From contig JBAZTI010000003.1 of NCBI GenBank assembly GCA_041662045.1, positions 1 through 42,034 of the forward strand: DNA of 42,034 nt, given 5' to 3'. The notes under the pieces are model-generated. The model ran no database searches and had not been told where the DNA came from. It worked only from the letters and a program-made list of their open reading frames with translations. Position numbers and translations under genes: made by a program. Of the stretch, positions 16,265 through 37,083 are shown in pieces; within the stretch, counting starts at the first letter, position 1; every line of letters starts with the position of its first letter. Source of the DNA: Candidatus Micrarchaeia archaeon. GTDB taxonomy: Archaea > Micrarchaeota > Micrarchaeia > Anstonellales > Anstonellaceae.

Positions 16265-16348
16265 CTACATGAAGTCCGCCAATCCTTTCTGCGCTTGAAG
16301 GCGCCGACATGCCCGCCCGCCTACATGAAGTCCGCCAATCCTTTCTGC
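16265..16348. repeat. Perfect 28-nt direct repeat containing the stop codon and last 8 codons of the PolD large subunit gene
   Basis: CTACATGAAGTCCGCCAATCCTTTCTGC occurs at 16265-16292 and 16321-16348, a period of 56 nt. The second copy is the true gene end (..QKGLADFM*). Confidence 0.95.
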
Positions 16349-19300
16349 TTTTCAGGCTCTTCCGTGAAGATGCTCGTGATGTCCTTCCTGAAAAGCTCCA
16401 TCCTCTGCTTCATGTATGGGGGCAGGTGGTAGCGCTCTATGAGGCGCTCTGCGTGGTCCAGGTATTTCGTTATCCCGCCCTTGTTTATGGTGAGGAGCAG
16501 CTTTCCCCCGCACGCGTTGCACTTGCCCGAGAGCGGCACGCGGCGGTATTTCACCTTGCACTCCAGGCAGCGGAACTCCTGCTGCGAGAACGAGCGCAGG
16601 TTGCCGTATAAATCCGGGAAAAAGTGGTGCAGGAGCAGCCGCTCGGCGGCGTCCGCAGGGTCAACCGCGCGTATTTTCTCCTGCAGGGTGAATTGCGCCT
16701 CTATTTTCTCGCCCATGTCCTTGAATTTCAGGTAGGTACTCTGGTGCGGGCCTGCGGAAACGTCCGCGGTCTCGTGGGAGTAGGGAAGGGACCCGTACTG
16801 CTCGGGCTTTCCAAGCAGCTTCTTCACGGTGTCCAGCTTAAGCTCGGATGGGGAGGCGTACTTGTCCGAAAGCTCGTAAAGCTCGATGGGGTAGGCGGAG
16901 CACACCTCCATGGAGTGCGCCTCGTCGTCCACCTCGTTGGGGTCAAGCTCCGTGGTGAGCACCAGGGGCGCGTCCATTGTGCCGCCGCGCGACTCGGGAA
17001 GGAATGCGCGCGAGAAGTTCAAGAGGCCGTCCATGAGCAGTATCACCGTGTCCTCGTCGCCGTCCGCGTTCCTCCTTTTCGCGGTGTGGAAGAACGGGTG
17101 GGCAAACCCCACGTGCGCGTCCGTGAAGCCCACAACGCGCGCAAGCACGCCTGCCGAGGTGTGCGGCGAGAGCCCGATAACCAGGTGCCCCAGCAAATCC
17201 TCCTCCTTCGAAAGATTGTAGAAGCGGGGCATGCCGTAGAGCTTGTCAAGCAGGTCGTCGATGAAGCGCGAGACCGAGAACAGGGTGTGCGCGCCGCTCC
17301 TTGAGAGGATGATGTCCTGCGCGTTGAGCGCGATTACCTGCGAGGCGTGCTCGAGCGGCCTGCCGTCCTTGTCGTGGGAGTAGCCGAAGCCGCGCGCCTG
17401 CTCCGCGCTTATGCCCATCTCGTCTGGGCGGAAATGAGTGAGGGGGATGTCGGTCGCGTCGAAGCGGCAGGTGCCGTCGCGGAACACGAACACGCCGTGC
17501 GCGGCGCGCAGGAAGCCCTTTTCCAGCGGCTCGGGCGTCTTTGATGCGGAGAAAAGCCCTTCCACGCCCTTTATGTCGGCAGACTTCGAGGCGTCGATGC
17601 CCGTGCGCTCTGCCGCGCGCTCGTAAAGCTTTATTATGTCCACCGCGCGCCTGTCGTAGTGCTTGGTTGCCACGCGGCACTCCGAGCACTCCTCGCTGTT
17701 CTTCGGCCTGCCGCACTTGGGGCAGACCAGCAGGAGAGCCGCCCTGCCGCCGCACGCGCACAAAGGCGAGAACGTCGTGTTGCCGCAGGAGGAACAGCGC
17801 ATGCGCGCGATTTCCACCTCCACGCCCCTGCCCTCGCGCTCCCCCTTGGCGCGAAGCTTCGCATATGCGCGGCTTATGGACGCGTTCTTGTCTATGCGGG
17901 TGCCTATCGGGAAAAGCACGTTCACGCTCTTTTTCATGCGCCGCTCGCGCGCCTTCTCGGGCCTGCCCATGCGCGAGCCGATGTATGTGGGCGCCTTGGG
18001 CATTATCCTCATGCCGGAAAGCTCGGACAGGGTGCCGAGCACCGGCTTTTTCCCGTCGAAAAGCGCGTCGAACTTCTCGCCCGTGATTTTCTTGTCCACC
18101 ATTATCCCCATGGTCTTCAGAAGCGCATAGGCGTGCTCCCCGGATATTTTCACCCTGCCCTCCTGCACGCTGTGCGGCACGCAAAGCTCCTCAAGCGCGG
18201 CTTTTGCAGGCGAGGACTCCAGCTCGAAGGATTCGAGCTTCAGGAGCCCGTAGCTCGGCTTGCCTGTGCGGAGCCACAGGGCAAGGTCCCGCAGCTGCTC
18301 GTGCGTGATGTCGTGCCAGAAGTACGTGTAGGTGGGGTGCAGTGGCAGGCCCGTCCTTCGCGCAAATGCCACCGCCTCGCCTGCAGGGCAGCCAGGGCGG
18401 GGGGGCAGCGCCCCCTGCTTCTTCGCCATGAGCTCGAGGCGCTCCTCGCACCATGCGGCAGGGAAAAGCGGGTGGTTGCTTTTCAGGAAGTCCCCGATCG
18501 AGACGAGCATGTCTCCCAGGAAAAGTATGCGCTCGACGCTCGGCAGGAGGCGCTCGGCCTCGCTTGCAGACTGCACCTCGACGACCGAGCCGTCCTTGAG
18601 CTTCACGGTGGGGCCCAGTATGGAGTCGCACGGGGTGATGACCGTGCTCTTGCCGGGCCGCTCTATTTTCATCTGCGTGCCCACCGCGAGGAAGGAGTCC
18701 AGCATGTACATGCTTGCAGGGTGCACCGCCTTGCCCATTATGCCGCTTCCGCGCGACCTGCCATAGCGGAGCCGCCAGCCGCCCTTTGTGGAAGGGTATG
18801 AGAAAATGGCCCTGCCGGCCACCGATTCCTCGAGGAAGCGGAAGTCGGGCTTGGGCTCGAACGCGCCCTCCTTTTTCGCCACCTTTATGATGGAGTCCAT
18901 CCAGCCCCAGTCAAGCCCGATTTTTTTGGTGTACCTTGAGACCTTTGCCGCCTTTTGGGCGATGCCTTCGCATATGACAAGCGCGATGCCCGAGCGCACG
19001 CGGTTGGTTGCGACCCCTGGCACGTCGCGGTGCACAGACACCTCTGCGTCCTCGGTGGGGTCGCCGTCTATGCAGACAGGGCAGCTCTTCACTATGTGGC
19101 GTATGTCCGCCTCGGGCGGGCGGTACTGCAGGTGCGCGGAGCGCGTGCCGTAGACGTCGATTTCCTCAACATACCTGTCAAGGAGCTCGTCGGTTGGGCG
19201 GAAGTCGCCTATGCCGAGCTGCCTGCGCGCCACGTCGCCAAGCACCACCGCAAGCGCGGCCACCGTGCCGCCTGCGGAGCGGATGGGGCCTGCGAAATAA

Positions 19301-19719
19301 ATGGCGAGGTAGTCGCTGCCGTCCTGGTTGCTCCGTATCTCGAACTTGGATATGCCCTCTGTCGGCGCCACGAGCACGCCCTCGGTCAGTATGCCTACTC
19401 CTGTCCGCACGGACTGCTCGATGAGCCTTTGCTTGCTTCCGCGGATTATCTCGCCGCGCACTATCTTGAGCACCACCATGTGCGCGATGGTCTGGCGCGA
19501 GTGCCCCTCCTTCTCAAGCGCGCGGATGACCTCGGTGATGCCTGGCGGCCCGACAATCCCCTCCACGCGCGCTGCAACGTCGGCTGCGCGCTTTATCTCA
19601 ACGTAAGGCGCAGGGTCGAGCCCCTTGCCCCGCGCCTCCTCGGCAACCGAATAGGCGCGCTCGCGGGCTGACGCAAGCGAGGAGAAATACCTTTCCATTT
19701 CCTCGCTCCTTTCCGTCAT
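16321..19719 (-). CDS. polC: DNA polymerase II (PolD) large subunit DP2
   Basis: 1132 aa. The N-terminus YFSSLASARERAYSVAEEARGKGLDPAPYVEI..AARVEGIVG and the Cys clusters (CSSCGNTTFSPLCACGG, CPKCGRP..CSEC, CLECKVKY..CNACGG) are typical of DP2. ATGA overlap with the DP1 gene. Length leaves no room for an intein. Confidence 0.95.
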   Translation of the reverse strand: MTERSEEMERYFSSLASARERAYSVAEEARGKGLDPAPYVEIKRAADVAARVEGIVGPPGITEVIRALEKEGHSRQTIAHMVVLKIVRGEIIRGSKQRLIEQSVRTGVGILTEGVLVAPTEGISKFEIRSNQDGSDYLAIYFAGPIRSAGGTVAALAVVLGDVARRQLGIGDFRPTDELLDRYVEEIDVYGTRSAHLQYRPPEADIRHIVKSCPVCIDGDPTEDAEVSVHRDVPGVATNRVRSGIALVICEGIAQKAAKVSRYTKKIGLDWGWMDSIIKVAKKEGAFEPKPDFRFLEESVAGRAIFSYPSTKGGWRLRYGRSRGSGIMGKAVHPASMYMLDSFLAVGTQMKIERPGKSTVITPCDSILGPTVKLKDGSVVEVQSASEAERLLPSVERILFLGDMLVSIGDFLKSNHPLFPAAWCEERLELMAKKQGALPPRPGCPAGEAVAFARRTGLPLHPTYTYFWHDITHEQLRDLALWLRTGKPSYGLLKLESFELESSPAKAALEELCVPHSVQEGRVKISGEHAYALLKTMGIMVDKKITGEKFDALFDGKKPVLGTLSELSGMRIMPKAPTYIGSRMGRPEKARERRMKKSVNVLFPIGTRIDKNASISRAYAKLRAKGEREGRGVEVEIARMRCSSCGNTTFSPLCACGGRAALLLVCPKCGRPKNSEECSECRVATKHYDRRAVDIIKLYERAAERTGIDASKSADIKGVEGLFSASKTPEPLEKGFLRAAHGVFVFRDGTCRFDATDIPLTHFRPDEMGISAEQARGFGYSHDKDGRPLEHASQVIALNAQDIILSRSGAHTLFSVSRFIDDLLDKLYGMPRFYNLSKEEDLLGHLVIGLSPHTSAGVLARVVGFTDAHVGFAHPFFHTAKRRNADGDEDTVILLMDGLLNFSRAFLPESRGGTMDAPLVLTTELDPNEVDDEAHSMEVCSAYPIELYELSDKYASPSELKLDTVKKLLGKPEQYGSLPYSHETADVSAGPHQSTYLKFKDMGEKIEAQFTLQEKIRAVDPADAAERLLLHHFFPDLYGNLRSFSQQEFRCLECKVKYRRVPLSGKCNACGGKLLLTINKGGITKYLDHAERLIERYHLPPYMKQRMELFRKDITSIFTEEPEKQKGLADFM

Positions 19720-21194
19720 ATCCCCACCCCTTCCTTGAAGCCTATGTAGTTCATCTTGCCAGTCATCGCCTCCAGCACCGGCACGAGCCCGGGCGATGGC
19801 ACGTGGCCCATCCTCACCTGGAAGTCGGTCCTGTCCTGGAAGGTGCCGCTGTTCAGGAGAAGCGCGCCGCGGTAGAGCATGTGCCCGTTCTTGTGCACGT
19901 GCCCCATGTGCACCACGTCGGGCTCGTCCTCCATCACTAGGTAGTCGTGCGCCTCGGGCACTATGAGGTTCTGCCCGTAAATCGGGGAGAGGTGGCGGCG
20001 GCGCACAAGCTCCAGCATTGCCTCGTGCGGCTTGTCGTACGAAAGCCCGCCTGCCGCGATAATGGAGTCGAGCGAGTTGCCGTGGTATATGAGGTGGCGC
20101 AGGCCCTCTATCTCCACGCGCGAGGGGCTGCCCACGCGCACCACGTTGCCCTTTATCATGTCATAGGGGATGATGGGCTGGGGCTCTGCGCGGCGCACAG
20201 CGTCGTGGTTGCCAGGCCCCACTATCACGGTTATGTAATCGGGTATCTTCTCCATGAAGGAGTCGAACATCTCGTACTGCTTGTAGATGTCCTTCACCGC
20301 AAGCTCCTTCTCCTGCTCGGGGTAGATGCCTATCCCGTCCGCAACGTCGCCTGCGATAACGACGTACTTCACCTTGCCTGCCAAATCAGCCCTGCCCTCG
20401 GAGCCGTTGAGCCAGCTTATGAAGTGCGAGAACTCGCCTTCCAGGAACTTCTTGCTGCCCATGTGCAGGTCCGAGATGTAGGCGATGGACAGGTCGCGCT
20501 CGGACTTCCTCTGCTCGCGGGCAACCGGGATGTCCGGCCACTCCACGTTGTCGCAGATGAAAAGCTCGTCCACGCTCTTGCCGTCGAACGCCACTATGTC
20601 GTCGGAAAGTATCTTGTGGTGCACCTTGAAGCCAGCGGTGTCCTTCATCACTACCACCTTGGCAGAGCCCTCCTCGTCCTCCACTTCCAGAAGCACGTTG
20701 CCTTTTTTCGTCATCTGCTTCCTGTTCACCATTGCGATGAGGCGCACTTTCGTGTTCTGGACGGACTTGAGCTTGCTTGTGGGCACGATGGCGTTCTGGG
20801 TGATGCGGGCGCGCACGATCTTGGAGATTCTCGCGTACCTGTCGCGGAAATGCGCCACGAAGTCCTCGAGCTTGCCGGTGCAGCGGGACTTGCCGCTCAC
20901 GTCGGATTTTTCAATGACTTTGTAGTTAGGGGAGTATTCCTTTGCAACCGGGCGGAAGGAGGGCGAGCGGCTCACCGCCGTTTCCACGGGGATTTTTCCC
21001 TCAGCGGACAGCATCCCGTCGATGTCGTCCTTTGCGAGCATGAACTTGCCGCTTGAGATGATTTTTTCAAGCGCGGAAGGCTCGAGGGCGAAATTCTCGA
21101 GGAACGAGTATGCGTCTGGGGAGAGGCGGATGCCTGCGGCGTAGATGGAGTCGATGTCGGATTTCAATTTCCCACCCGCAACTTGCTGCCTCAT
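19716..21194 (-). CDS. polB: DNA polymerase II (PolD) small subunit DP1
   Basis: OB-fold region followed by calcineurin-like phosphoesterase motifs DLHMGS, GDVADG, GNHD, HGNS, GHVH. Confidence 0.93.
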   Translation of the reverse strand: MRQQVAGGKLKSDIDSIYAAGIRLSPDAYSFLENFALEPSALEKIISSGKFMLAKDDIDGMLSAEGKIPVETAVSRSPSFRPVAKEYSPNYKVIEKSDVSGKSRCTGKLEDFVAHFRDRYARISKIVRARITQNAIVPTSKLKSVQNTKVRLIAMVNRKQMTKKGNVLLEVEDEEGSAKVVVMKDTAGFKVHHKILSDDIVAFDGKSVDELFICDNVEWPDIPVAREQRKSERDLSIAYISDLHMGSKKFLEGEFSHFISWLNGSEGRADLAGKVKYVVIAGDVADGIGIYPEQEKELAVKDIYKQYEMFDSFMEKIPDYITVIVGPGNHDAVRRAEPQPIIPYDMIKGNVVRVGSPSRVEIEGLRHLIYHGNSLDSIIAAGGLSYDKPHEAMLELVRRRHLSPIYGQNLIVPEAHDYLVMEDEPDVVHMGHVHKNGHMLYRGALLLNSGTFQDRTDFQVRMGHVPSPGLVPVLEAMTGKMNYIGFKEGVGI

Positions 21195-21271
21195 TCGGCG
21201 ATTGCGGCCCTTTGCTGAAAAATGCGGCGGCCTTGCACCACAAAGCCGGCGCCGTTACGGATTAATATGCA

Positions 21272-21523: not shown

Positions 21524-21634
21524 GTTCCCACCTGCGCCAGTGTCACAAGCCGCGTGCGGCTCCAAAGATAATATGCAGTGTAAACGAAAGGCGGACGAAT
21601 TACATTCAAAAAGCTTATAATGAAACTTCCCGGC

Positions 21635-22107: not shown

Positions 22108-22180
22108 GGGGCCGTGGGCTAACCTGGTACGCTACCGCGTTCGGGACGCGGTGATCTGTGTTCAAATCACAGCGGCCCCA
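22108..22180 (+). tRNA. tRNA-Pro (anticodon CGG), no intron, CCA not encoded
   Basis: Acceptor GGGGCCG/CGGCCCC, anticodon stem CCGCG/CGCGG with loop TTCGGGA, T arm CTGTG-TTCAAAT-CACAG, discriminator A. The D stem has only 3 bp. Confidence 0.85.
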
Positions 22181-22184
22181 TTGA

Positions 22185-22258
22185 CATTTTCACGTAGGTG
22201 AAAATGGCAATAAGTTGTGCGAAGCACAACTGTATCGTCAAGTTGCAAGAGCAACTTG
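22185..22258 (+). repeat. Cluster of three consecutive hairpins between tRNA-Pro and the convergent nth stop
   Basis: CATTTTCAC-GTAG-GTGAAAATG (22185-22206), AGTTGTGC-GAA-GCACAACT (22213-22231), CAAGTTGC-AAGA-GCAACTTG (22239-22258). The 22-mer AAGTTGTGCGAAGCACAACTGT recurs at 23175-23196. Confidence 0.85.
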
Positions 22259-22261
22259 GCG

Positions 22262-22970: not shown

Positions 22971-23125
22971 CGGGCCCGTGGCGCAGCCTGGATAGCGCGG
23001 CAGACTTCTATCCGTAGGGGGCAGATGACTCAGATAATATCCCCCTAACGGTTCACCCCCAATTTGGGCGCATGAACCGGCGATGGAGAAATCTGAAGGT
23101 CGTGAGTTCAAATCTCACCGGGCCC
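22971..23125 (+). tRNA. tRNA-Arg (anticodon TCT) with an ~80-nt intron after position 37 (about 23010-23089)
   Basis: Acceptor GGGCCCG/CGGGCCC, D arm GCGC-AGCCTGGATA-GCGC, anticodon stem GCAGA / TCTGA (27:43 is G.A), loop CT-TCT-A, T arm GTGAG-TTCAAAT-CTCAC, discriminator G. The intron folds into two long stems. Confidence 0.8.
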
Positions 23126-23135
23126 GTTCTTTTTT
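23126..23135 (+). terminator. Oligo-T termination tract after tRNA-Arg
   Basis: TTCTTTTTTC immediately follows the discriminator base. Confidence 0.5.
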
Positions 23136-23137: not shown

Positions 23138-23219
23138 AGAAGGTCGTGATCGTCAACTGCGTAGCAGTTGGCGAGAAGTTGTGCGAAGCACAACTGTGAG
23201 TTCAAATCTCACCGGGCCC
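23138..23219 (+). repeat. Second copy of the tRNA-Arg 3' part, interrupted by a pair of hairpins
   Basis: GAAGGTCGTGA (23138-23148) equals 23094-23104. GTGAGTTCAAATCTCACCGGGCCCG (23195-23219) equals 23101-23125. The 46-nt insert holds CAACTGC-GTA-GCAGTTG and AGTTGTGC-GAA-GCACAACT. Confidence 0.9.
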
Positions 23220-23244
23220 GAATTTCCTTTTTATTAAGAAGTAC

Positions 23245-29219: not shown

Positions 29220-29905
29220 GCAAGAAGAGCGACGACGTTATGCGCCTTGAGGGCGTGTGCAAGATATACGAGATGGGCGAGGACAAGCTCTATGCGCTGA
29301 ACAATGTGGACCTGGTGATAAAGAGGGGCGAGTTCGCCTCCATCCTTGGCCCATCCGGCAGCGGCAAGTCCACGCTTTTGCACATACTGGGGCTTCTTGA
29401 CGAGCCCTCGCGGGGGGAGATATACCTGGACGGCATCGAGGTGCACAAGCTGAACGACGACGAGCGCGCGCACCTGCGCGGCAAGAAGATAGGGTTCATA
29501 TTCCAGATGTTCAACCTCATCCCAAGCCTCACCGTGCTTGAGAACGTGACGCTGCCGGCGCTCATTTACGAGTCGGACCCGGAAAAAGCGCAGCAGAAGG
29601 CGGTTGAGACGCTTCGGCAGATAGGGATGGGCGAGCGGCTGGGGCATTACCCCAACCAGCTTTCGGGCGGGCAGAGGCAGAGGGTGGCGATTGCGCGCGC
29701 CCTCATCAACGACCCGGAGATAATACTTGCGGACGAGCCGACCGGCAACCTGGACACCAAGACGGGCCACGAGGTTCTCGCAATGTTCCATGACCTGCAC
29801 AGGCAGGGCAAGACCATGATAATAGTGACGCACGACACCAATGTCGCAAAAATCACCCACCGGACAATCCGCGTGGTGGATGGCAAAATCGCCAAGGAAA
29901 GCTAG
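29216..29905 (+). CDS. ABC transporter ATP-binding protein (MacB/LolD-type)
   Basis: Walker [11 protein letters not shown]-loop, signature LSGGQRQR, Walker [13 protein letters not shown]-loop VTHD. Confidence 0.92.
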
Positions 29906-29915
29906 AGGTGAGAAT

Positions 29916-31421
29916 ATGGAAAACAGGATATTTGCAGTTTTGGCGCTCGCGCTTTGCCTTGCAGGCGCCGCGCATGCCACGCTTTACGTGGACTCGTATT
30001 CCGTGTCCCCGGCAAGCCTCAACCCCGGGCAGGAGGGAGTGGTCACTTTTGCCATACAAAACCCCATACCGACCGGCTTGACAACCACCGACCAGCTGGA
30101 GAGCGTGCAGGTATTCTATGCCGCGCCTGCCGGGATTGAGTACAAGGCAGCAAGCCCGTTCATGGTGGGCACCATAAGCGCCGGCGGCTCGGCATTGGTC
30201 ACAGTGCCTTTCAAGGTCCGCGCAGACGTGAAGGGAGGGGTGATAACCGCCCCGTTTTACATTTCCATGAAGGACGCGACAGACCTCAAGACAATAAATG
30301 CCGGGATAACCGTGGTGAACCCGGCCATACTGTCATTCAGCTCGGACCACCAGACCGTGCTTTCCACCGACCTGATAAACCTCACAATCACCAACAACGG
30401 GGGCTCGGCCTCCAGGGCATCGCTTTCGTTCGCAGCAGGGAGCAATTTCTCGTTCGTAGGCCTGACCTCGATATACATCGGCGACATCAAGGAATCCGTT
30501 TCGGTGATGGTGCCCCTTGACTCGAGGAAAGTGGCCGAAGGCGTGACAGGGGTGCCGTTCGTGCTTTCCTACACGGACGACGGCGGCAACAGCATTTCGT
30601 CCTCAAACACGCTCACGCTGGCAATCAAGAAGGAGAAGGCGGACGTGGCATTCACCCAGCTTGAGCCCATTGTGACCAACAAGGACAATGTGCTTCGCAT
30701 GAAGGTGAAGAACAACGGAAGGCCGCTTGAGGACTTCCGCGTTTACCTGACCGACGAGCTGGTAAAGGCAAAGGACTCGACGCCGATAAAGCTCGGGACG
30801 CTTGGCACCGATGACGAGAAGACGTTCGAGATCCTGGTCTTCGTCACCCAGCAGCCGGGCCTGAAGGCCACCTCATTCCAGATAAAGTGGGTGGAGGAGG
30901 ACGTGGACAAGGAAGAGGCCATCAGCGTGCCGATTGCGATAAGCTCGGACGCAGAGGTCGGGATATACCTGGATGCCAAGCCCGCCCCGATTGCGGTGGG
31001 CGGGGACTACACGCTCTCAGCTACAGTTTCCAACCTGGGCTCGTACAAGATAGCCAACGTGGTGGTGTCTCTCGAGGAGAGCGACGCGTTTGTCGGTCTC
31101 AACGTGCAGAAGGAGCAGTACATAGGCAACCTGGACAATGACGCATTCTCCACAGTGCAGTACAAGATACGCGTGAAGCCCGCCATTGAGGCAGGCCAGT
31201 ACCCGCTTGTTTTCAAGGTGCGCTACAAGGACCAGTCCGGCCTTTGGATTGAGAAGGAAATCAGGACGATGGTGAGCGTAAGGCCTGCAAGCGAGGGAGT
31301 GGCAAAGGACAACGGCAGCGGAACGCTTATGCTCATCGGGGGCGTGGCAGTGGTTGCGGTTGGCTACTGGTACTTCAGGATGAGAAAGCCCAAGCATGGG
31401 CTTTCTCAGAAGTCGAGCTAG
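29916..31421 (+). CDS. Secreted CARDB/S-layer-like repeat protein with a C-terminal TM anchor
   Basis: RBS-like AGAGGTGA precedes the ATG. Signal peptide MENRIFAVLALALCLAGAAHA, repeated beta-rich modules, C-terminal LMLIGGVAVVAVGYWYF plus a basic tail. Confidence 0.7.
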   Translation: MENRIFAVLALALCLAGAAHATLYVDSYSVSPASLNPGQEGVVTFAIQNPIPTGLTTTDQLESVQVFYAAPAGIEYKAASPFMVGTISAGGSALVTVPFKVRADVKGGVITAPFYISMKDATDLKTINAGITVVNPAILSFSSDHQTVLSTDLINLTITNNGGSASRASLSFAAGSNFSFVGLTSIYIGDIKESVSVMVPLDSRKVAEGVTGVPFVLSYTDDGGNSISSSNTLTLAIKKEKADVAFTQLEPIVTNKDNVLRMKVKNNGRPLEDFRVYLTDELVKAKDSTPIKLGTLGTDDEKTFEILVFVTQQPGLKATSFQIKWVEEDVDKEEAISVPIAISSDAEVGIYLDAKPAPIAVGGDYTLSATVSNLGSYKIANVVVSLEESDAFVGLNVQKEQYIGNLDNDAFSTVQYKIRVKPAIEAGQYPLVFKVRYKDQSGLWIEKEIRTMVSVRPASEGVAKDNGSGTLMLIGGVAVVAVGYWYFRMRKPKHGLSQKSS

Positions 31422-31434
31422 GGGCTCGGCTAAG

Positions 31435-31470
31435 ATGAGAAAGCGCAAGCCGGCGCTTTCCCAGAAGTAG
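31435..31470 (+). repeat. Degenerate duplicate of the last 13 codons + stop of the preceding gene
   Basis: ATGAGAAAGCGCAAGCCGGCGCTTTCCCAGAAGTAG (MRKRKPALSQK*) versus the gene end ATGAGAAAGCCCAAGCATGGGCTTTCTCAGAAGTCGAGCTAG (MRKPKHGLSQKSS*, 31380-31421). Confidence 0.8.
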
Positions 31471-31523: not shown

Positions 31524-32744
31524 GTGAAACTCATCGACATATTGGTATATTCGCTCAAGAGCCTCGCGCACCGCAAGATGCGCGCCTGGCTCACCGTGCT
31601 GGGCATTGTGATAGGCATAGCCGCGGTGATATCGCTGATGACCCTGGGGCAGAGCTTCAATGACTCTGTCAACAAGCAGCTCTCCGCGCTTGGCTCCAAT
31701 ACCATTTTCATCACCCCCGCGGCAGAGTCTTCCGGAGGGTTTGGTAACGCGCCCATGAACCCTACCGCTGGCAAGCTTTACGACAAGGATGCGGAAAGGA
31801 TAAAGCGCGTGCCAGAAGTGTCCGACATCGCGCGCATACTTACCTCAAGGGGGAGCGTGGGCTACAGGGAAAAGAACCTCACAGCGAGCATAATAGGCGT
31901 GGAGCCTGGCGTTTTTGAGAAGACGACCGCGCTCAAGATTGCGGCAGGGCGCTTCCTGCAGGAGAACGACAGGCGCGTGGTGGTGATAGGCGACCAGGTG
32001 GCGTACGACACGTTTGGCAGCAGGAACACGCTTTCCGTGAACTCCGTGATCCTGATAAAGGGGATAAAATACAAGGTGGTGGGCATACTGGAAAAGTCCG
32101 GCGGAGGCTTTGGCTACAGCAACACGGACACAGGCATTTACATACAGTTCACCGAGGCGCGCGAGATGTTCAAGGCTTCCCTTGCCCCAAACGAGGTGCA
32201 GGCAATGGTACTGTCCGTGCGCGAAGGCTCTGACATGCCGGATGTGGTGGACAAGATAAAAAACGAGCTGGACGCCTCGCACAAGGTCAAGCCGGACAGC
32301 AGGGATTATTCCGTGGTGGACCCTGCAAGCATACAAAAGGCGGTGAGCAGCGTGCTTTCCATGATAACTGTTTTCCTCGGCGCGATAGCGGGCATTTCGC
32401 TCCTTGTCGGGGGGCTGGCAATCGCGTCCTCAATGTTCACATCGGTGATTGAGAGGACGCATGAAATCGGCGTGCTGAAGGCGATTGGCGCAACTAGGGG
32501 GGACATACTCGGCATATTCGTCATAGAGGCAGGGGCTATCGGGGGCATTGGCGGCGTGTTTGGCGTGCTCATAGGCATGGCAGTGGCTTACGCGGCCACA
32601 GTGTTCGGGCTGCCCTCTGCGGTTGGCTGGCCGCTCATTCTGTTCGGGGTGGGCTTTGCAGTCGTGATCGGCCTGGCGTCAGGCTTCGTGCCTGCGAGGA
32701 ACGCGGCAAGGATGACGCCCGTGGATGCGCTTAGGTATGATTGA
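31524..32744 (+). CDS. ABC transporter permease, MacB/FtsX family
   Basis: N-terminal TM helix, large periplasmic MacB_PCD-like domain, C-terminal FtsX-type 3-TM bundle (ERTHEIGVLKAIGATRGDIL). GTG start. Confidence 0.85.
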   Translation: MKLIDILVYSLKSLAHRKMRAWLTVLGIVIGIAAVISLMTLGQSFNDSVNKQLSALGSNTIFITPAAESSGGFGNAPMNPTAGKLYDKDAERIKRVPEVSDIARILTSRGSVGYREKNLTASIIGVEPGVFEKTTALKIAAGRFLQENDRRVVVIGDQVAYDTFGSRNTLSVNSVILIKGIKYKVVGILEKSGGGFGYSNTDTGIYIQFTEAREMFKASLAPNEVQAMVLSVREGSDMPDVVDKIKNELDASHKVKPDSRDYSVVDPASIQKAVSSVLSMITVFLGAIAGISLLVGGLAIASSMFTSVIERTHEIGVLKAIGATRGDILGIFVIEAGAIGGIGGVFGVLIGMAVAYAATVFGLPSAVGWPLILFGVGFAVVIGLASGFVPARNAARMTPVDALRYD

Positions 32745-32753
32745 GGGGCTTTG

Positions 32754-33968
32754 ATGAAACTGCTTGACATTTTCAAATACTCGATGGAAAGCCTCAGGCA
32801 CCGCCAGATGAGGTCATGGCTCACCATACTGGGCATTGTGATAGGCATTGCCTCGGTGGTGGCGCTCCTGACCATCGGCGAGTCGCTGAACACCGAGGTG
32901 AACAGGCAGCTCACGGCGCTTGGCGCGAACATGATATCCATCTCGCCGTCCACCGACCCGTTTGCCAACCCCTTCACATCCGCTTCATCGGGCAAGCTGT
33001 TCGAAAACGACGCGGAGAGGCTCAAGAGGATACCCGACGTGGTGGACGTCTCGCGGGTGGTGTACGGAAGGGCGAGCCTGGGCTACAAGGACAAGAAGAT
33101 AACCTCGCTTGTGATGGGAATAGACCCCAAAGTGTTCGAGACCATGTCCTCGATAGAGGTTGCAAACGGCAGGTTCCTGCAGGACAATGACAGGGGGGTG
33201 GTCGCAGTAGGCGGCCAGTTCGCAGAGGACGCATTCGGCGTCAGGAACAGGCTCAACGTGGGCTCCTACATCACCATCAACAATGAGAAATACCCCATAA
33301 TCGCGGTGCTGGCAAAGTCTGGCGGCGGGTTTGGCCTCAACACGTTTTTGGACAATGGGGTGTTTGTCACCTACCACGACGGCAAGGAGATTTTCAGGGA
33401 CAGCCTGGCGGACAAGGAGGTCAACGAGATAGACGTCACGGTGCGCGAGGGCGCGGATATGGACGAAGTGGTGGAGAAGATAACGCTTGAGCTTGCCGCA
33501 GCGCACAAGCTGCGCGTGGAGGACAAGGACTTCTCGGTTGTGGACCCCAAGACAATACAGGCATCCGTGGATTCCGTGCTTTCACTGATCACCGCTTTCC
33601 TTGGCGCAATAGCGGGCATCTCGCTGCTTGTTGGCGCGCTTTCCATTGCCAACAACATGTTCACGTCGGTGTTCGAGCGCACGCACGAGATTGGCGTGCT
33701 GAAAGCGATAGGCGCCACGCGGGGGGACATCATGAAGATATTCGTGTTCGAGGCAGGCGCTGTTGGCGCCATAGGCGGCTTTGCAGGCGTGCTCCTCGGC
33801 TACGCCCTTGCGCTTTCCGCGAACTTTTTCGGCCTGCCAACAGGCGTGAACCCGCTGGTTGGCCTGTTCGGCGTGGCATTCGCATTCGGCATAGGAATGG
33901 TGTCGGGCTGGGCGCCTGCCAACATGGCATCCGCGCTCTCGCCAGTGGACGCGCTCAGATATGAATAG
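32754..33968 (+). CDS. ABC transporter permease, MacB/FtsX family (paralog)
   Basis: Same architecture and the same ERTHEIGVLKAIGATRGDI motif as the preceding gene. Confidence 0.85.
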   Translation: MKLLDIFKYSMESLRHRQMRSWLTILGIVIGIASVVALLTIGESLNTEVNRQLTALGANMISISPSTDPFANPFTSASSGKLFENDAERLKRIPDVVDVSRVVYGRASLGYKDKKITSLVMGIDPKVFETMSSIEVANGRFLQDNDRGVVAVGGQFAEDAFGVRNRLNVGSYITINNEKYPIIAVLAKSGGGFGLNTFLDNGVFVTYHDGKEIFRDSLADKEVNEIDVTVREGADMDEVVEKITLELAAAHKLRVEDKDFSVVDPKTIQASVDSVLSLITAFLGAIAGISLLVGALSIANNMFTSVFERTHEIGVLKAIGATRGDIMKIFVFEAGAVGAIGGFAGVLLGYALALSANFFGLPTGVNPLVGLFGVAFAFGIGMVSGWAPANMASALSPVDALRYE

Positions 33969-33969
33969 G

Positions 33970-33978
33970 TTTTTAACC
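33970..33978 (+). promoter_or_regulatory. TATA box of tRNA-Leu
   Basis: TTTTTAACC centred 28 nt upstream of tRNA position 1. Confidence 0.6.
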
Positions 33979-34001
33979 AATTCTTCCAAATTCACTCTCG
34001 C

Positions 34002-34167
34002 GCAGGGATAGCCAAGCTTGGTCAAAGGCGCAGGACTCAGAGAGCCCTTTTTGCTCCTCCCGCAAGCGCTCGTCGCAAAAAGCGCTCGCGGAAAAGTAAA
34101 ATGTGCAACAAGGTCTTCGGAAATCCTGTCGGTTAGCCGTTCGTGGGTTCAAATCCCCCTCCCTGCA
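34002..34167 (+). tRNA. tRNA-Leu (anticodon CAG) with an ~81-nt intron after position 37 (about 34042-34122)
   Basis: Acceptor GCAGGGA/TCCCTGC, D arm GCC-AAGCTTGGTCAAA-GGC, anticodon stem CAGGA/TCCTG, loop CT-CAG-A, long variable arm (CGG-TTAG-CCG), T arm GTGGG-TTCAAAT-CCCCC (one U.C mismatch), discriminator A. Confidence 0.8.
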
Positions 34168-34184
34168 CTTCGCTCTTGCTCAGT

Positions 34185-34248
34185 GCAGGTCGGTTTCGAC
34201 CTGCGGTCGAAATCCCGCCAGCAAGCTGGCGGTCCCCCTCCCTGCACT
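34185..34248 (+). repeat. Degenerate second copy of the tRNA-Leu T-arm/3' end, embedded in two hairpins
   Basis: Hairpin GCAGGTCG-GTTT-CGACCTGC (34185-34204), T-loop-like GGTCGAAATCC, hairpin CGCCAGC-AA-GCTGGCG (34216-34231), then TCCCCCTCCCTGCACT (34233-34248), identical to 34154-34169. Confidence 0.85.
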
Positions 34249-34882
34249 AATCCTTTTTTCCCCTGCCAGTGTCGTAAAGGAGGATGCCTGGGCTCGGCGC
34301 ATAATCGGCATTCCAGTCCTGCAAGTCGAAAAGGTGCCTGGTGCCCCCGTCCGCCGCTTTTATCCCGAACCGCTTGCAAAGCGAGATGGAATAATCCATG
34401 ATGCGCGCGTGCATGCCGTGCAGGCAGATTCCAAGCGCGTGCTTCATGACCAGATCGAATACGTTTTCGCCTTCCTGCGCGTTGAGTTCCGGCACTTTGA
34501 ATGCTTTCACCACCTTGTCGGTGACGCCGCATGCCCTGCAGGGCGTTCCTATCCTGAAAACCAGATCTATGTCGCTTGATGCGCACAGGGGGCTGCCCTT
34601 TATCCTGCCGCCCACCATGTACAGCCTGACCCTGCCCGGGTCCATGCCGCAGTGCGAGTGCGCCTTCACCATGATGGCATATTCCTCGGCCAGGAGCCTC
34701 GCATACTCCGGAAGCCTGACATAGGCGCTTAGAAAGGTTTCCCGCTGCCCGCGGAGATTTTCCGGAGCCCCGTCAAGATCCATGATAAGCTTTTGCAAGT
34801 TGCGCGCCAAGGTTGCGCTTGGGCGGCCGGCAATCAGTGCGCCAGCCGTTGCTTCCGCCTGCTTATAGAGGGGGCCGTTCAC
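34247..34882 (-). CDS. Nucleotidyltransferase (Pol-beta superfamily) domain protein
   Basis: VGGRIKGSPLCASSDIDLVF fits the G-S-x(n)-D-x-D minimal NTase motif. Confidence 0.5.
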   Translation of the reverse strand: MNGPLYKQAEATAGALIAGRPSATLARNLQKLIMDLDGAPENLRGQRETFLSAYVRLPEYARLLAEEYAIMVKAHSHCGMDPGRVRLYMVGGRIKGSPLCASSDIDLVFRIGTPCRACGVTDKVVKAFKVPELNAQEGENVFDLVMKHALGICLHGMHARIMDYSISLCKRFGIKAADGGTRHLFDLQDWNADYAPSPGILLYDTGRGKKD

Positions 34883-35148
34883 AGGTTTTTTGTGTTAGAA
34901 AATGTTTATATATATTGACGTGCGCCTCGGTGCGGCTTGCACTCCCTGCACATAATAAGTAAGCATTAGTGCGCGTCAGATAAAATTTGAAATCATCCTG
35001 GGTCGGGGAGTCCAATCCCTTTCCCATCATCGAATCCACTTGTCCTCATGCGCGCACTCCTCTTGTGCCCCCTCCCGTATTTAACCCTGCCTTTTGCGCG
35101 CAAGGGCAAACCTAATTAAATCTTTGATGGGGATTTGCTGCGATAGGC

Positions 35149-35304
35149 ATGGCGGTATCAGAGTGCCCGGAATGCACGTTCCACATCCAGCTTGAGGAAG
35201 GGCTGGAGGTAGGGCAGGTCATCGCCTGCCCGGACTGCGGGGCGAAGATAAAGCTTGTGAAGGAGTTCCCGCCGGTGTTTGCGCGCGTGGGAGAGGAGCG
35301 GTGA
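35149..35304 (+). CDS. Small zinc-ribbon protein (LysW-like fold), 51 aa
   Basis: Not in the ORF track (<60 aa). MAVSECPECTFHIQLEEGLEVGQVIACPDCGAKIKLVKEFPPVFARVGEER has CPEC..(17)..CPDC as in LysW-type ribbons, but lacks the EDWGE tail. TATA-like CCTAATTAAATC lies ~30 nt upstream. Confidence 0.5.
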   Translation: MAVSECPECTFHIQLEEGLEVGQVIACPDCGAKIKLVKEFPPVFARVGEER

Positions 35305-35308
35305 GGGA

Positions 35309-36788
35309 ATGGCGGCCGGAAAAACAGCTTTTGCTTCGCTTGTATTCATTTCCCTCATGCTTCCCGCCGCCTTTTGCGCCTGGAGCCAGGCGCTTGACGT
35401 TTTCGTGGCAGACTCAAACGGCCTGCCTGTGCAGGGCGCGAGCATCAGGATAACCTACCAGAAGGCTAGCGGCACCGCAGGCAACGACGGGCTTGTAGAG
35501 GGGAAAACAGGGGAGGACGGGAAATACTACGCGGGCCTTGAAAACACCGTGCCGGAGGGGCTTGAGGACAGGGCGATAAGCGTGGAGGCGCGCGCATACG
35601 GCTGGCTGGAGGAGAAGCAGGCATTGGCTGATGGCAGCGGGCAGGCCGCGGTGGTGGCGTTTGCCGCGCCGTTTGAGCTTTCGAAGGCCACAATAACCGT
35701 GCTCCAGGCAAGCGGGCTGCCGGCAATCGGCGCCTCGGTGTACATAAGCGGAAGCGAGGTGAAGCTGGCCACGGATTACATGGGAAAAGCGGCAGTTTAC
35801 GCGCCTTCGGGGCTTGAGCTGTCGGGCTTTGTCTCGTATGGGGGCGAAGGGGAGTACTTTTCAGCGGCAGCAGGCAGCGGCAGGGAAATCACGGTAACCC
35901 TCCCTGCAGGGGGGGATGCCGGGTCTGGCGGCACCGTGCTTTCGGTGACATTCATAGCTCCTGACAAGTCGGCGCTTGCAGGGGAAAAGGCGGTATTCAC
36001 GTTCGAAGGCAGGAACGTTTCCGCATACACGGACGCAGGAGGGGTGGCGTCAGTTGAAATCCGGGAAAGCGGTCCTGTGCTTGCAAGCGTGAGGAAGAAC
36101 GACCATGACTACGAGTTCTCATTCAACGTGACTGGACGGCAGCCCGAAAAGCGAAACCGCGGCGCTTGCCCCGCTCCTCAAGATAGACTATTTCGAGTCA
36201 AGCCCCGAGGGAAACGGGTGCTACCAGCTCGCGGCAAAGGTGAGCGACCCGAGGGCGAACAGGCCGATAACGGTTCGGATGATGCAGGTGAACAGCGACA
36301 GCGTGCCTGTGGGCGAGATAAAGGTGTCGGTGGACGAAAACGGGGTCTATGCCGGAAGGGTGTGCGTCAGGGAGGACGCGCTGGTGAGGGTGGTGGCGTC
36401 AAACGCCTATGAGACCACGGAGAAGGCGTTTTCGCTTGCCGCGTCAGTCAAGCCGCCGCCCCAGCCCGAGCCTGGCGAGCCTGAGCCCCAGCCGGTTGCG
36501 CCTGAGCCTTCGGTTCCGGCCCAGCCTGCAAGGGCAGTCACGCTTGAGGAAACGCTGGGCACGCTTGCCGCAGCGGCGGTGATGGTTGCGCTGGTGGCAG
36601 GGATAGGGATTGTCTTCCTTGGCAGGCACAACCCCCAGGCTGCAGGAGGGATGCTGAAGGCGGCAGGCCAGATGCAGGAGCTTTTCATGAGAAGCATAGC
36701 GCGCCCGATACTGGAGTACCTCAGGTCGGTCTTCAAGAAAAAGGAGCCGCCGCAGCAGACTTTCGGGCAGCAGCAAAAGGGGCAATGA
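35309..36788 (+). CDS. Secreted protein with carboxypeptidase-regulatory-like beta-sandwich repeats, a Pro/Glu linker and a C-terminal TM anchor; apparent 1-nt frameshift near 36131
   Basis: The signal peptide MAAGKTAFASLVFISLMLPAAFCAWS and repeats lie in frame 1 up to ..YEFSFNV. A credible continuation (LDGSPKSETAALAPLLKIDYFESSP...PPPQPEPGEPEPQP...TM) lies in the frame of ORF 36240..36788. The frame-1 continuation is Arg/Gly-rich nonsense. Confidence 0.6.
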
Positions 36789-36833
36789 CCGGTTCTTTCC
36801 ACTTGAGCCGGCTGAAATGAGTCTGGCGCGCCA

Positions 36834-37083
36834 TTATTTGAGCCGAATCGCATCAAGGTTCATCGGGGCTCGCGAGTCGATGCGCAACGCTAGTTGCGCA
36901 GATTTTCAGCCTCAGCTGAAAAGACGAGCGGGCTCTACTTGAGCCTGATGGCATCCAAATTCATGGGTGCGCGCGAGTCGACGGACAACCGCAGTTGGAC
37001 GGATTTTCAGCGCAGCTGAAAACAAGAGCGCCATCCTATTTCAGCCTGATAGCATCAAGATTCATTGGCGCTCTTGAATCGAT
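36834..37083 (-). repeat. Tandem array (period 101 nt, 3 copies) of the aCPSF1 3' coding tail plus a hairpin-bearing spacer
   Basis: Tails at 37036-37083 (in the gene), 36935-36982 and 36834-36881. Spacers of 53 nt each hold TTTTCAGC-N3/4-GCTGAAAA (37004-37022, 36903-36922) and a CAAC-N4-GTTG stem (36882-36899 is perfect). Confidence 0.95.

Follow-up and report, generated by a model that had tools for sequence, protein, structure and literature searches.

The last 16–50 bases of several genes in a contig of Micrarchaeota (DPANN) recur just 3′ of those genes, past a short stretch of hairpin DNA. In the window, by which we mean the whole stretch of 42,034 nucleotides analyzed, five or six loci within 21 kb have this pattern. 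The repeating units measure 44–101 nt, and 27–63 nt, or up to 265 nt, of hairpins lie between the copies. Our tentative reading, which we hold to be quite possible if short of probable, is that gene-end cassettes have been added serially by recombination with DNA of other Micrarchaeota lineages.

Results

Duplicated Gene Ends and Chance Expectation

A sequence-only reading had listed duplications at five genes (PolD-DP2, tRNA-Arg, CARDB-like, tRNA-Leu, and aCPSF1) and a hairpin-only version after tRNA-Pro, and all were found where it had placed them, the tRNA-Pro run without duplication (Table 1). Within 150 nt, the window has three exact direct repeats no shorter than 16 nt, whereas 100 shuffles gave none. 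Hairpins whose stem reaches 8 bp or more number 16, compared with 3.7 on average after shuffling, and ten of these lie in noncoding DNA (7% of the window), all at the listed loci. Chance is thus no explanation for the pattern.

Table 1. Genes, gene-end copies, and hairpin modules of the window
Locus	Feature	Positions	Strand	Remark
PolD-DP2	Gene	16321–19719	minus	Pfam PolC_DP2 domains
PolD-DP2	Functional 3′ end, last 28 nt	16321–16348	minus	Stop codon 16321–16323
PolD-DP2	28-nt spacer between the two ends	16293–16320	minus	GCGGGCGGGCATGTCGGCGCCTTCAAGC
PolD-DP2	Distal exact 3′-end copy, then native intergenic TTTTAATAG...	16265–16292	minus	Flank matches L101
tRNA-Pro	Gene	22108–22180	plus
tRNA-Pro	Three-hairpin run: A/T-flanked stem 22185–22206; Hb 22213–22231; ATC + Hc 22236–22261	22185–22261	plus	No duplication
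tRNA-Arg(TCT)	Gene	22972–23126	plus
tRNA-Arg	Conserved element GGGGGTGAACCnTnAGGGGG..CCCCCTA in intron	23012–23060	minus
tRNA-Arg	Functional 3′ part (GAAGGTCG...GGGCCCG) + T-rich trailer ttcttttttcaa	23095–23138	plus	Read as gene-proximal unit
tRNA-Arg	Displaced copy of 3′ part	23139–23220	plus	Interrupted at 23150–23196
CARDB-like	Gene	29841–31421	plus
CARDB-like	Proximal tail unit with hairpins hpA, hpB	31380–31433	plus
CARDB-like	Displaced tail copy	31435–31470	plus	MRKRKPALSQK, then stop
tRNA-Leu(CAG)	Gene	34002–34167	plus
tRNA-Leu	Functional 3′ end, T-loop to 2 nt past discriminator A73	34154–34169	plus
tRNA-Leu	Module: trailer 34170–34182, X 34183–34189, H1 34194–34212, TC, H2 34215–34232	34170–34232	plus
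tRNA-Leu	Displaced exact 3′-end copy, then T-run	34233–34248	plus
aCPSF1/FttA	Gene	37036–38973	minus	Pfam
aCPSF1	Functional end, copy A	37036–37083	minus	IDSRAPMNLDAIRLK, then stop
aCPSF1	Module A: X_A, T-run + H1 (37004–37022), TC, degenerate H2	36983–37035	minus
aCPSF1	Displaced copy B	36935–36982	minus	VDSRAPMNLDAIRLK, then stop
aCPSF1	Module B: X_B, H1 (36903–36922), TC, H2 (36881–36900, TGCGCAACTAGCGTTGCGCA)	36882–36934	minus
aCPSF1	Displaced copy C	36834–36881	minus	IDSRAPMNLDAIRLK, then stop
aCPSF1	Fourth end, decayed remnant	36800–36817	minus	..CAGCCGGCTCAAGTGG; direct sequence reading

The aCPSF1 Array

At aCPSF1, three 48-nt ends (stop codons at 37036, 36935, and 36834) and a decayed fourth copy follow one another. 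Copy B differs from copy A at 12 nucleotides and just one amino acid, copy C at 11 nucleotides and no amino acid. Across seven pairs of 48 nt each (window A/B/C, L005, L046, L053, and L095; L-numbers denote related loci), 9–13 nucleotides differ and the amino acid is changed in only 0–2 codons per pair, against 6–8.5 under neutral drift (P ≤ 5e-5 for each); in an FtsX copy pair of L007, all three differences are synonymous. The displaced copies were once functional, as their codons show, and are probably of foreign origin, transferred between lineages. Same-cell retro-copying, which the sequence-only reading had offered, gives no account of copies with synonymous-only differences. A stable, structure-protected 3′ transcript fragment, gene end and hairpins together, would in that case have been reverse-transcribed and inserted, and the unit borders at hairpin feet, the distal copies adjoining a T-run terminator, and the reverse transcriptases of the clade (a diversity-generating retroelement, DGR, with RT-16 RNA in L005) would agree with this. 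RNA of the same cell, however, gives identical copies and a retro-copy is nonfunctional from birth, with which the synonymous-only differences and the diversity step described below conflict; nor are the differences adenine-specific, as a DGR would make them, and the window has no reverse transcriptase. We consider an RNA-mediated origin very improbable.

The distal copies decay: L046 has acquired a nonsense codon, L053 has lost the stop, and L095 shows a D>G change, and the outermost copies are down to remnants of ~15 nt, in the window (36800–36817) as in L003, L018, L047, and L088. In L005, the distal copy aligns collinearly, flank included, with L056, which has one end only, and it is the closer to that end (6 vs. 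9–10 differences, with the same TAA stop), although such native-copy calls from 48-nt comparisons have few informative sites. Decay also bears on the idea that the extra ends still serve, as alternative 3′ exons reached through bulge-helix-bulge (BHB) splicing or ribosome bypassing, all under selection. The peptide is indeed preserved in the copies, real T-loop introns occur at the tRNA-Leu junction position and are homologous between tRNA-Leu (L004, L047) and tRNA-Arg (L099), and Micrarchaeota have a splicing endonuclease of broad specificity (PMC3239211); yet besides the decay, the 101-nt unit length disrupts the reading frame, inspection of the aCPSF1 junction flanks found no BHB-type complementarity, and the first copy is complete already. 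We give this idea next to no credence.

The repeated element had been described as hairpins only, which does not fit the unit found: a surrogate gene end and a gene-specific, co-varying post-stop arm, X, precede the hairpins. In copy A, the CAAGAGCGCCA codons are the pairing partner of X_A (TGGCGCTCTTG), and each functional end folds together with the segment behind its own stop codon into a terminator-like hairpin, X pairing with the 5′ part of that end at −20.5 (window copy A), −22.9 (L095), and −20.7 kcal/mol (L005). X co-varies with its gene end (AGA-GCG-CCA with TGGCGCTCT, GAG with CTC), and the displaced units B and C of the window have lost the match to their own X. The H2 hairpin of module B is also present in L095 and L046.

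Among 12 genomes of the clade, aCPSF1 has a third-codon-position diversity of 0.33 over most of its length but of 0.54 over the final 15 codons, a level that none of 40 other stretches of equal size attains, and the step starts at the duplication boundary, junction J. In 18 genomes, neither a large element nor a second, distant aCPSF1 end was found within 10 kb, which makes scars of large elements unlikely for this gene; the aCPSF1 end was not found in viral contigs either.

tRNA-Leu, Enzymes, and Relatives

At tRNA-Leu, the repeat is an exact one of 16 nt. Its module has an X (GTGCAGG) whose sequence complements the 3′ end of the tRNA, an A/T-flanked hairpin (H1), and a G+C hairpin (H2), and from X on, it is identical in L004, a different species whose neighboring genes are just 65–69% identical. 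L005 has, at the same tRNA-Leu, three tRNA-Leu 3′ fragments, a tyrosine integrase, and a 1.19-kb ParDE cassette flanked by exact 38-nt repeats; by this island, integration evidently occurs at the same gene in a sister genome. The window itself, as already observed, holds no recombinase: a search for integrase, transposase, reverse transcriptase, and Cas1 found none there, and about 1.5 Mb of related loci yielded one integrase only.

Empty sites, for which a comparison with sister genomes had been proposed, exist in independent assemblies (e.g., at the DP2, tRNA-Arg, and tRNA-Pro hairpin sites), and the architecture itself likewise recurs in such assemblies, at the same genes. The duplicated-end pattern is present in the window archaeon and in its relatives. 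All sequences come from metagenome assemblies, and an assembler might have concatenated strain variants, but the architecture recurs in contigs of separate projects, built with different assemblers, the tRNA-Leu module is shared by different species, structured hairpins stand between the copies, and the empty DP2 site is identical in four samples. An assembly artefact is hardly believable.

PolD-DP2, tRNA-Arg, and CARDB-Like Ends

Relatives L101–L104 have a 42-nt intergenic region that lacks the PolD-DP2 spacer. This spacer has no second occurrence among all sequences compared and contains the gene end again in inverted, imperfect form. The exact duplications, here and in L010, give no sign of foreign origin.

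The last 25 nt of tRNA-Arg recur at 23196–23220 as part of a 32-nt copy (GAAGGTCGTGA...) that is split by a two-hairpin insert of 47 nt (23150–23196; ATC-Hc'-GAG-Hb) with a 3-bp TGA duplication. The 22-nt Hb of this insert equals the copy at 22212–22233 after tRNA-Pro. L099 and L100 have one tRNA-Arg 3′ copy, then a T-run; the tRNA-Pro hairpin series recurs in L100 with compensatory stem changes and is absent from L099. The anticodon-loop intron of tRNA-Arg (80 nt, about 23011–23090) contains an element whose family also forms the spacer between the duplicated ends of aCPSF1 (L053) and FtsX (L007).

Several of these features would be expected from template switching during replication or repair, fork-stalling or break-induced, at tRNA genes with high transcription and at terminator hairpins, where the nascent strand would copy a short stretch elsewhere, sometimes on the opposite strand or in a foreign homologue, and re-prime upstream, duplicating the end. 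They include the inverted copies of the adjacent gene end within spacers (the DP2 spacer and X), stems with symmetrical indels and compensatory changes, an Hb insert apparently templated from a locus 1 kb away, the variable duplication length, and the concentration of events at convergent gene ends. The spacer, however, differs from the native downstream sequence, the same junction recurs across many lineages with conserved modules, and synonymous-only copies would require a foreign template every time. We deem template switching distinctly unlikely.

The CARDB-like locus does contain a duplication (31379–31413 and 31434–31468, 86% identical), but calling it a gene end was mistaken, the tail being a hairpin element into which the ORF reads. 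Here, hpA (ATGAGAAAG..CTCAGAAG) is coding, and the present stop codon lies in the loop of hpB (TCGAGCTAGGGGCTCGGCTAAG); the locus is an array of hairpin pairs. In relative L056, the functional end is similar to the displaced copy.

Hairpins as Mobile Palindromes

The hairpins are best read as separately mobile palindromes of a clade-specific family. They are also found without duplication, in a tRNA intron, and with 3–5-bp target duplications, and their density is 0.4–2.7 per kb in the window's clade vs. about 0.1 per kb in other Micrarchaeota. Sharing of hairpin sequence, as first proposed, holds for AAGTTGTGCGAAGCACAACTGT, identical after tRNA-Pro and tRNA-Arg, and for the two near-identical A/T-flanked stems of aCPSF1; the others are alike in architecture only.

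It seems unlikely to us, though worth serious consideration, that MITE- or REP-like two-hairpin palindromes alone made the pattern, inserting at gene ends and duplicating a long, variable target whose copies diverged later. The identity of Hb at two loci, the small target duplication in the displaced tRNA-Arg copy, a 50-nt two-hairpin insert with a 5-bp duplication in the tRNA-Leu 5′ end (L006, L007, and L052), the nesting of insertions in L005 and L058, the density in the clade, and a patchy distribution with highly similar carriers all favor this, as do the exact DP2 and L010 duplications and the placement of hpB before the displaced copy at two unrelated genes, which suggests that duplication can arise during hairpin insertion. 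In-situ duplication, however, yields neither near-synonymous copies nor a diversity step at J, duplications of 3 to about 52 nt are unlike those of any single transposase, no transposase was found in the window, and X, being gene-specific and co-varying with the gene end, is no part of a generic element.

Discussion

Under the serial addition that we tentatively prefer, a cassette would comprise, in order, a surrogate 3′ gene end from a fixed junction J, the arm X, and one or two palindromic hairpins, with X folding back on its own gene end into a terminator-like hairpin followed by a T-run. It would join the gene body at J; its end would then take over as the working end, the resident end would be shifted downstream to decay there, and repeated rounds would stack ends with the newest adjoining the gene. 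The outcome would be of the Campbell type, a single crossover with a molecule bearing a target copy, or could alternatively come from unequal crossover with a donor already carrying an array; small mobile palindromes would settle in the 3′ flanks, nest, and travel with the cassettes, and the candidate activity would be either an integrase supplied in trans or the homologous recombination of the host, working on short homology. We infer both this recombination route and the direction of insertion, by which the proximal copy is the incoming one.

Near-synonymous copy pairs, distal decay, the native-copy match, X co-variation, the diversity step at J, empty sites with recurrence, the L005 integrase island, and published precedent support this reading. 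Counting against it are units too small for ordinary double-stranded circles, a number of loci that would need many target-specific elements, the scarcity of recombinases, the lack of a full-size element or distant copy near aCPSF1 (18 genomes) and of any aCPSF1 end in viral contigs, the exact DP2 and L010 duplications, hpB at two unrelated genes, and the few sites behind the native-copy identification. What stands of the integration first proposed is an integration-like topology, supported by new ends beside the gene and older, decaying ones outward, together with empty sites and probably foreign, formerly functional copies; its hairpin-only element does not stand, and scars of large elements are unlikely for aCPSF1.

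As stated earlier, and as far as we checked, none of the systems described so far has exactly this signature. In Escherichia coli icd, e14 and phage 21 supply the target gene with a surrogate 3′ end. As here, such integrative elements leave the gene intact with a displaced end copy downstream, silent differences between the copies can occur, and in tRNA genes the junction is in the T-loop; unlike them, our loci have hairpins rather than a gene-bearing element between the copies, no nearby integrase, many targets in 21 kb, and up to four stacked ends. Archaeal integrated elements sit in the 3′-distal portions of protein-coding as well as tRNA genes; their att sites span 8–69 bp, a range that includes the repeat lengths here, and one site is reused in tandem (PMC6563490, PMC8371274). 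In the tycheposon islands of Prochlorococcus, elements accrete in tandem at att sites, and newcomers likewise shift older elements outward, leaving partial tRNAs and arrays of partial gene ends (10.1101/2020.12.28.424599). Our units differ from tycheposon and cis-mobilizable accretion in measuring 50–100 nt rather than kilobases, in targeting protein-coding genes too, including the essential aCPSF1 and PolD, and in each having a gene-specific terminator arm. Cis-mobilizable elements without an integrase are a known kind, and the L005 ParDE cassette is likewise a nonautonomous unit between att-like repeats.

REP/BIME and MITE sequences are small palindromic repeats that resemble our hairpins in lying in 3′ intergenic DNA, clustered and nested, and in their conserved outer stems, variable centers, and one-clade expansion; they differ in that our copy numbers are low and no RAYT or other transposase was found, and we know of no REP that duplicates 16–50 nt of the upstream gene end. 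Fujishima et al. 2010 reportedly described tRNA introns transposed between tRNA genes in Thermoproteales, comparable to our homologous T-loop introns in tRNA-Leu and tRNA-Arg and to the element common to a tRNA intron and gene-end spacers, although our modules lie outside the mature RNA or ORF, between duplicated gene ends. Whatever the enzyme, spare ends resembling the working ends of other lineages point to a frequent, hitherto undescribed swapping of gene ends.

Gene-end duplications in the window and in its relatives

The duplicated gene ends are present in the window at the positions where the sequence-only reading had placed them, and its names for PolD DP2, the CARDB-like surface protein and aCPSF1/FttA are borne out by Pfam. 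The window, a complete metagenomic contig of 42 kb that related loci place among the Micrarchaeota (DPANN), has three tRNA genes, tRNA-Pro, tRNA-Arg(TCT) with an intron and tRNA-Leu(CAG) with an intron; they were the only Rfam matches at the gathering and E<=1 thresholds, and exact-protein look-ups of the window genes returned no record. Direct repeats that are exact over 16 nt or more and lie within 150 nt of each other number three, as against none in 100 shuffles, and 16 hairpins have stems of 8 bp or longer, as against a shuffle mean of 3.7. Ten of these 16 fall in the non-coding 7% of the window, every one at the gene ends considered here (DP2, the three tRNAs, the CARDB-like gene and aCPSF1). 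The downstream copy of tRNA-Arg is 32 nt long and is interrupted by an insert of two hairpins, 47 nt in all, that carries a 3-bp duplication. At the CARDB-like gene, the 'gene end' is itself a hairpin element into which the ORF reads, and the locus is an array of hairpin pairs; arrays of this type have two or three units in the related loci L001 and L006/L051 and a single unit in L056 (L numbers denote contigs or loci of other Micrarchaeota from independent assemblies).

With aCPSF1 queries, one genome scan and one metagenome scan recovered approximately 40 Micrarchaeota loci from many projects and assemblers. The aCPSF1 end is followed by a module and a displaced, downstream copy in L005, L010, L046, L053, L061 and L095 and by short remnants in L003, L018, L047 and L088, and it is single in many other genomes examined. 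The tRNA-Leu 3' end occurs in one to three copies in the window, L004, L005, L006, L009, L047 and L091 and is single in L001, L012, L052, L054 and L056, and the same pattern is found at the FtsX gene of L007 and at another gene of L006. The duplication of gene ends is thus real and recurrent, and an origin in sequence assembly is scarcely credible. Empty sites, which it had been proposed to seek in sister genomes, are present for DP2, tRNA-Arg, tRNA-Leu and aCPSF1: in four samples (L101-L104), the intergenic region after DP2 is clean and 42 nt long, and tRNA-Arg lacks the module in L099 and L100. tRNA-Pro lacks hairpins in L099; in L100, it carries the hairpin series of the window with compensatory stem changes and two additional hairpins. 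A mechanical screen sought matches of at least 18 of 24 nt to a stop-containing gene end, no more than 300 nt downstream. Of the 191 genes from the window's clade, 5 had such a match, as did 7 of the 292 from other Micrarchaeota, and the reversed-query control gave none; the L003 4913 match was a false positive caused by TPR repeats. No second copy of the DP2 spacer was found in the window and the relatives' loci examined.

Three observations concern the surroundings of DP2. The topoisomerase VI subunit B gene, a single gene of 551 aa in relatives, is divided in the window into two overlapping ORFs by a frameshift that is either genuine or an error of sequencing. For the KH-domain gene downstream of DP2, an ATG is the probable start (175 aa, as in all homologues), the TTG start of the 186-aa ORF being disfavoured. 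Finally, the DP2 of L099 (1661 aa) contains an intein bearing a LAGLIDADG domain, and that of the window (1132 aa) has none.

Coordinates of the genes, hairpins and other elements discussed
Feature	Locus	Position	Strand
PolD DP2	window	16321-19719	minus
CARDB-like surface protein	window	29841-31421	
aCPSF1/FttA	window	37036-38973	minus
Topoisomerase VI subunit B, frameshift	window	14725-14737	
Topoisomerase VI subunit B, overlapping ORFs	window	13931-14707; 14632-15588	
KH-domain gene, probable ATG start	window	near 16220	
PolD DP2 with intein	L099	12847-16025	
tRNA-Pro hairpin pair, Hb-GT-ATC-Hc	window	22213-22261	
tRNA-Arg hairpin pair, ATC-Hc'-GAG-Hb-GT	window	23150-23196	
GGGGGTGAACCnTnAGGGGG-(variable loop)-CCCCCTAGGG	window	23012-23060	
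same element	L100	7373-7421	
same element	L014	18455-18640	
same element	L053, L007	spacers	
aCPSF1 upstream hairpin/doublet	L004	1727-1750	
same hairpin/doublet	L005	9961-9982	
same hairpin/doublet	L006	9980-10026	
same hairpin/doublet	L046	2644-2665	
tRNA-Arg T-loop intron	L099	5222-5262	minus
DGR	L005	17189-19497	
DGR reverse transcriptase	L005	18364-19497	
DGR RT-16 RNA (Rfam 81.8 bits)	L005	18106-18276	
CRISPR array	L061	6660-8640	

Coding signature and order of the copies

The three aCPSF1 ends of the window, the functional copy A and the displaced copies B and C, differ at 11-12 of 48 nt, and all encode (I/V)DSRAPMNLDAIRLK followed by a stop codon. Across seven aCPSF1 copy pairs from five genomes, the amino acid is changed in 0-2 codons per pair, where neutral drift of one copy would be expected to change 6-8.5 (P<=5e-5 per pair); in the FtsX pair of L007, all three differences are synonymous. 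Such near-silent differences indicate that the copies diverged as working gene ends in separate lineages and not after a local duplication. The distal copies have decayed, with a nonsense codon in L046, a lost stop in L053 and a D>G change in L095, and the outermost are remnants of approximately 15 nt. Displaced copies are not maintained after their displacement, and that they serve as functional alternative ends is very improbable. From the decay of the distal copies, it follows that order reflects age, the newest copy adjoining the gene. Both the distal copy of L005 with its flank and the distal CARDB tail with its flank match the single-end outgroup L056 better. Among 12 genomes of the clade, the last 15 codons of aCPSF1 have a diversity at third codon positions of 0.54, as against 0.33 for the rest of the gene; no other segment of this length, among 40 compared, reaches 0.54, and the rise starts at J, the junction where the repeated gene end begins. 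Recurrent replacement of the end would produce such a step. When the body of aCPSF1 was scanned in sliding segments for recombinant tracts, no informative signal emerged; the clade is star-like, with identities of 83-92%.

Anatomy of a unit

Read in gene orientation, one unit consists of the gene 3' end from J, a post-stop arm X, a T-run leading into an A/T-flanked hairpin H1 (TTTTxxGC..GCxxAAAA), the dinucleotide TC and a G+C hairpin H2, after which the next gene-end copy begins. The aCPSF1 junction is constant in the six arrays having this module type (..CA/TCGAC.., J at the slash); at tRNA-Leu, the repeat runs from a J in the T-loop to 2 nt past the discriminator base. The native flank or T-run adjoins the last copy and not the first, and the spacer is therefore inserted DNA; for the same reason, native downstream DNA repeated by local tandem duplication or rolling-circle copying can be ruled out as its source. 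The X arm can pair with the opening codons of the gene end that precedes it and co-varies with them: in copy A of the window, CAAGAGCGCCA pairs with TGGCGCTCTTG, and L095 has a GAG-CTC pairing where other units have GAC-GTC. Duplexes between gene end and X in functional units have energies of -20 to -23 kcal/mol, and the displaced units B and C have lost the match to their own X. The cassette co-evolves as one piece, and its gene end, X and T-run resemble, in combination, a terminator hairpin belonging to the gene itself.

Mobile hairpins and shared small elements

The hairpins are mobile in their own right. Hb, a hairpin of 22 nt, has the same sequence after tRNA-Pro and within the displaced tRNA-Arg copy; the tRNA-Leu 5' end of L006, L007 and L052 carries a 50-nt two-hairpin insert with a 5-bp duplication; and hairpins are nested inside the H1 loop in L005 (190 nt of hairpins) and L058. 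Four settings share a second spacer family, GGGGGTGAACC..TAGGGGG..CCCCCTAGGG: it lies in the tRNA-Arg intron of the window, downstream of tRNA-Leu in L014, and between the duplicated ends of aCPSF1 in L053 and of FtsX in L007. Strong hairpins reach 0.4-2.7 per kb in the window's clade as against approximately 0.1 per kb in other Micrarchaeota, and the exact hairpin patterns were not found to recur in other genomes; the families are lineage specific. The hairpin hpB (..GCTCGGCTAAG) stands before the displaced copy at two unrelated genes, and the duplications at DP2 and in L010 are exact. Both facts leave some room for a duplication of the gene end by mobile hairpins as they inserted, which we regard as unlikely though worth serious attention, and for a switch of template during replication, for which the chances are poorer still.

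Several elements are shared more widely. The conserved element GGGGGTGAACCnTnAGGGGG-(variable loop)-CCCCCTAGGG, for which no Rfam match was found, is common to distant Micrarchaeota in differing contexts (tRNA intron, tRNA trailer and gene-end spacers). In several genomes, a hairpin or hairpin doublet, CTTTTTCGn..nCGAAAAAG-GggCCCC-TTTTTGC..GCAAAAAG, is conserved immediately before the start of aCPSF1, and this doublet is also nested in tRNA-Leu modules (L058). The tRNA-Pro hairpin pair is circularly permuted at tRNA-Arg, a single case that a circular or tandem intermediate could produce.

Introns, too, vary. Homologous introns of approximately 40 nt occupy T-loop position 59/60 in the tRNA-Arg of L099 and the tRNA-Leu of L004 and L047, unrelated introns occupy this position in L010 and L014, and the tRNA-Arg of the window has an anticodon-loop intron in place of the T-loop intron; the intron content of the same tRNA gene changes freely among close relatives. 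The T-loop inserts of these five loci look like true introns. At the aCPSF1 junctions, inspection revealed no flank complementarity for an archaeal BHB intron.

Relation to known mobile elements

The likening of the repeats to att-type site-specific integration holds in part: as in tyrosine-integrase elements, direct repeats containing the target 3' end flank inserted DNA (in the window, and as 38-nt repeats in L005), and related genomes have the empty site, but the window ORFs include no Phage_integrase match. Nor do they match any transposase, RT or Cas1 family, and copying of the ends through RNA is improbable. The sole integrase found among the loci examined belongs to an island at the tRNA-Leu site of L005, where a ParDE cassette of 1.19 kb, bounded by exact 38-nt repeats, and three 3' fragments of the tRNA are accompanied by a Dam methylase with nuclease, a DGR and a tyrosine integrase; classical accretion therefore occurs at one of these targets. 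The DGR lies inside the island, beside the tRNA-Leu fragments, and has short repeats approximately 515 nt apart in an upstream 290-aa ORF. At aCPSF1, the 10 kb around the gene yielded neither a large element nor a distant copy in any of 18 genomes, and scans of viral contigs with aCPSF1 and a degenerate pattern of its last 11 codons gave no matches. Synteny is lost exactly at the aCPSF1 stop codon, with the duplicated end absent, in L008 and L062, where a Dam methylase with nuclease follows, and in L001, L002 and L063, where the next genes encode a TrmB regulator and an unknown protein of 475 aa. In L001 and L062, the region behind aCPSF1 was examined for a large element, and this was rejected, other genes being present (TrmB; Dam methylase with nuclease; Fic) but no integrase and no distal copy.

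Other classes of element were compared as well. The fixed-length target-site duplication of MITEs and insertion sequences is not seen, the lengths being 3, 5, 11, 16, 24-28, 39 and 48-52 nt; hairpin families have two to three copies each in the window and the relatives' loci examined. As to REP/BIME elements, the G+C hairpins are preceded by ATC or TC linkers, and no RAYT gene was seen in the loci examined. The differences between aCPSF1 copies involve all four bases, unlike DGR VR/TR pairs, and the varying duplication lengths within one genome do not agree with ectopic CRISPR spacers or casposons. A CRISPR array of approximately 30 units (30-nt repeat GTCTCGAATTAACCGATGTGGTATTGAAAC, period approximately 64-65) lies approximately 1.4 kb upstream of aCPSF1 in the Micrarchaeota contig L061.

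The system is a miniature, serial, multi-target form of att-type gene-end duplication combined with clade-specific mobile palindromes, and we found no description of such a system in the literature searched. The best-supported explanation, which we hold tentatively and at somewhat short of even chances, is that foreign gene-end cassettes are added serially by recombination, with an outcome like that of a Campbell-type insertion. Such addition would account for the coding signature and the age order of the copies, and also for the constancy of J, the match of each gene end to its own X and the diversity step. The enzyme could be an integrase acting in trans, or the host could recombine on short homology. 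Serial addition fits what is known of integrated elements of archaea, with their 3'-distal targets, att sites of 8-69 bp and tandem site reuse (PMC6563490, PMC8371274), and the outward displacement of older elements that leaves partial-tRNA scars (10.1101/2020.12.28.424599); an integrase of relaxed specificity is known, but its action is limited to identical segments of 104 bp or more (PMC8371274). More speculatively, with perhaps a modest chance of being right, the arrays may represent a self-contained mobile unit of approximately 50-100 nt without a recombinase of its own, in which the surrogate end of an essential gene is joined to a terminator arm that matches it and to palindromic hairpins. 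Such a unit would spread between Micrarchaeota lineages by adding itself at a structure-defined junction, either by way of hairpin intermediates in single-stranded form or with the host recombining on very short homology, and as a by-product would continually renew terminators and seed new introns and 3' UTRs.

Implications

If gene-end cassettes are indeed added serially, gene ends would be exchanged frequently between lineages of DPANN archaea, whose recombination machinery is thought to be sparse. The last approximately 45 nt of the essential aCPSF1/FttA would then have had a different history from the gene body (PolD has exact duplication only), and phylogenies and synonymous-rate estimates would have to allow for it. 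Serial addition would also provide a concrete route to the gain of terminator hairpins, 3' UTRs and non-canonical tRNA introns, and a signature for which any genome could be screened: stop-containing repeats with silent differences only and hairpins between them. Should the arrays turn out to be ordinary integrase scars, they would still represent an unusually dense, miniature form of att-site accretion in a very small genome.
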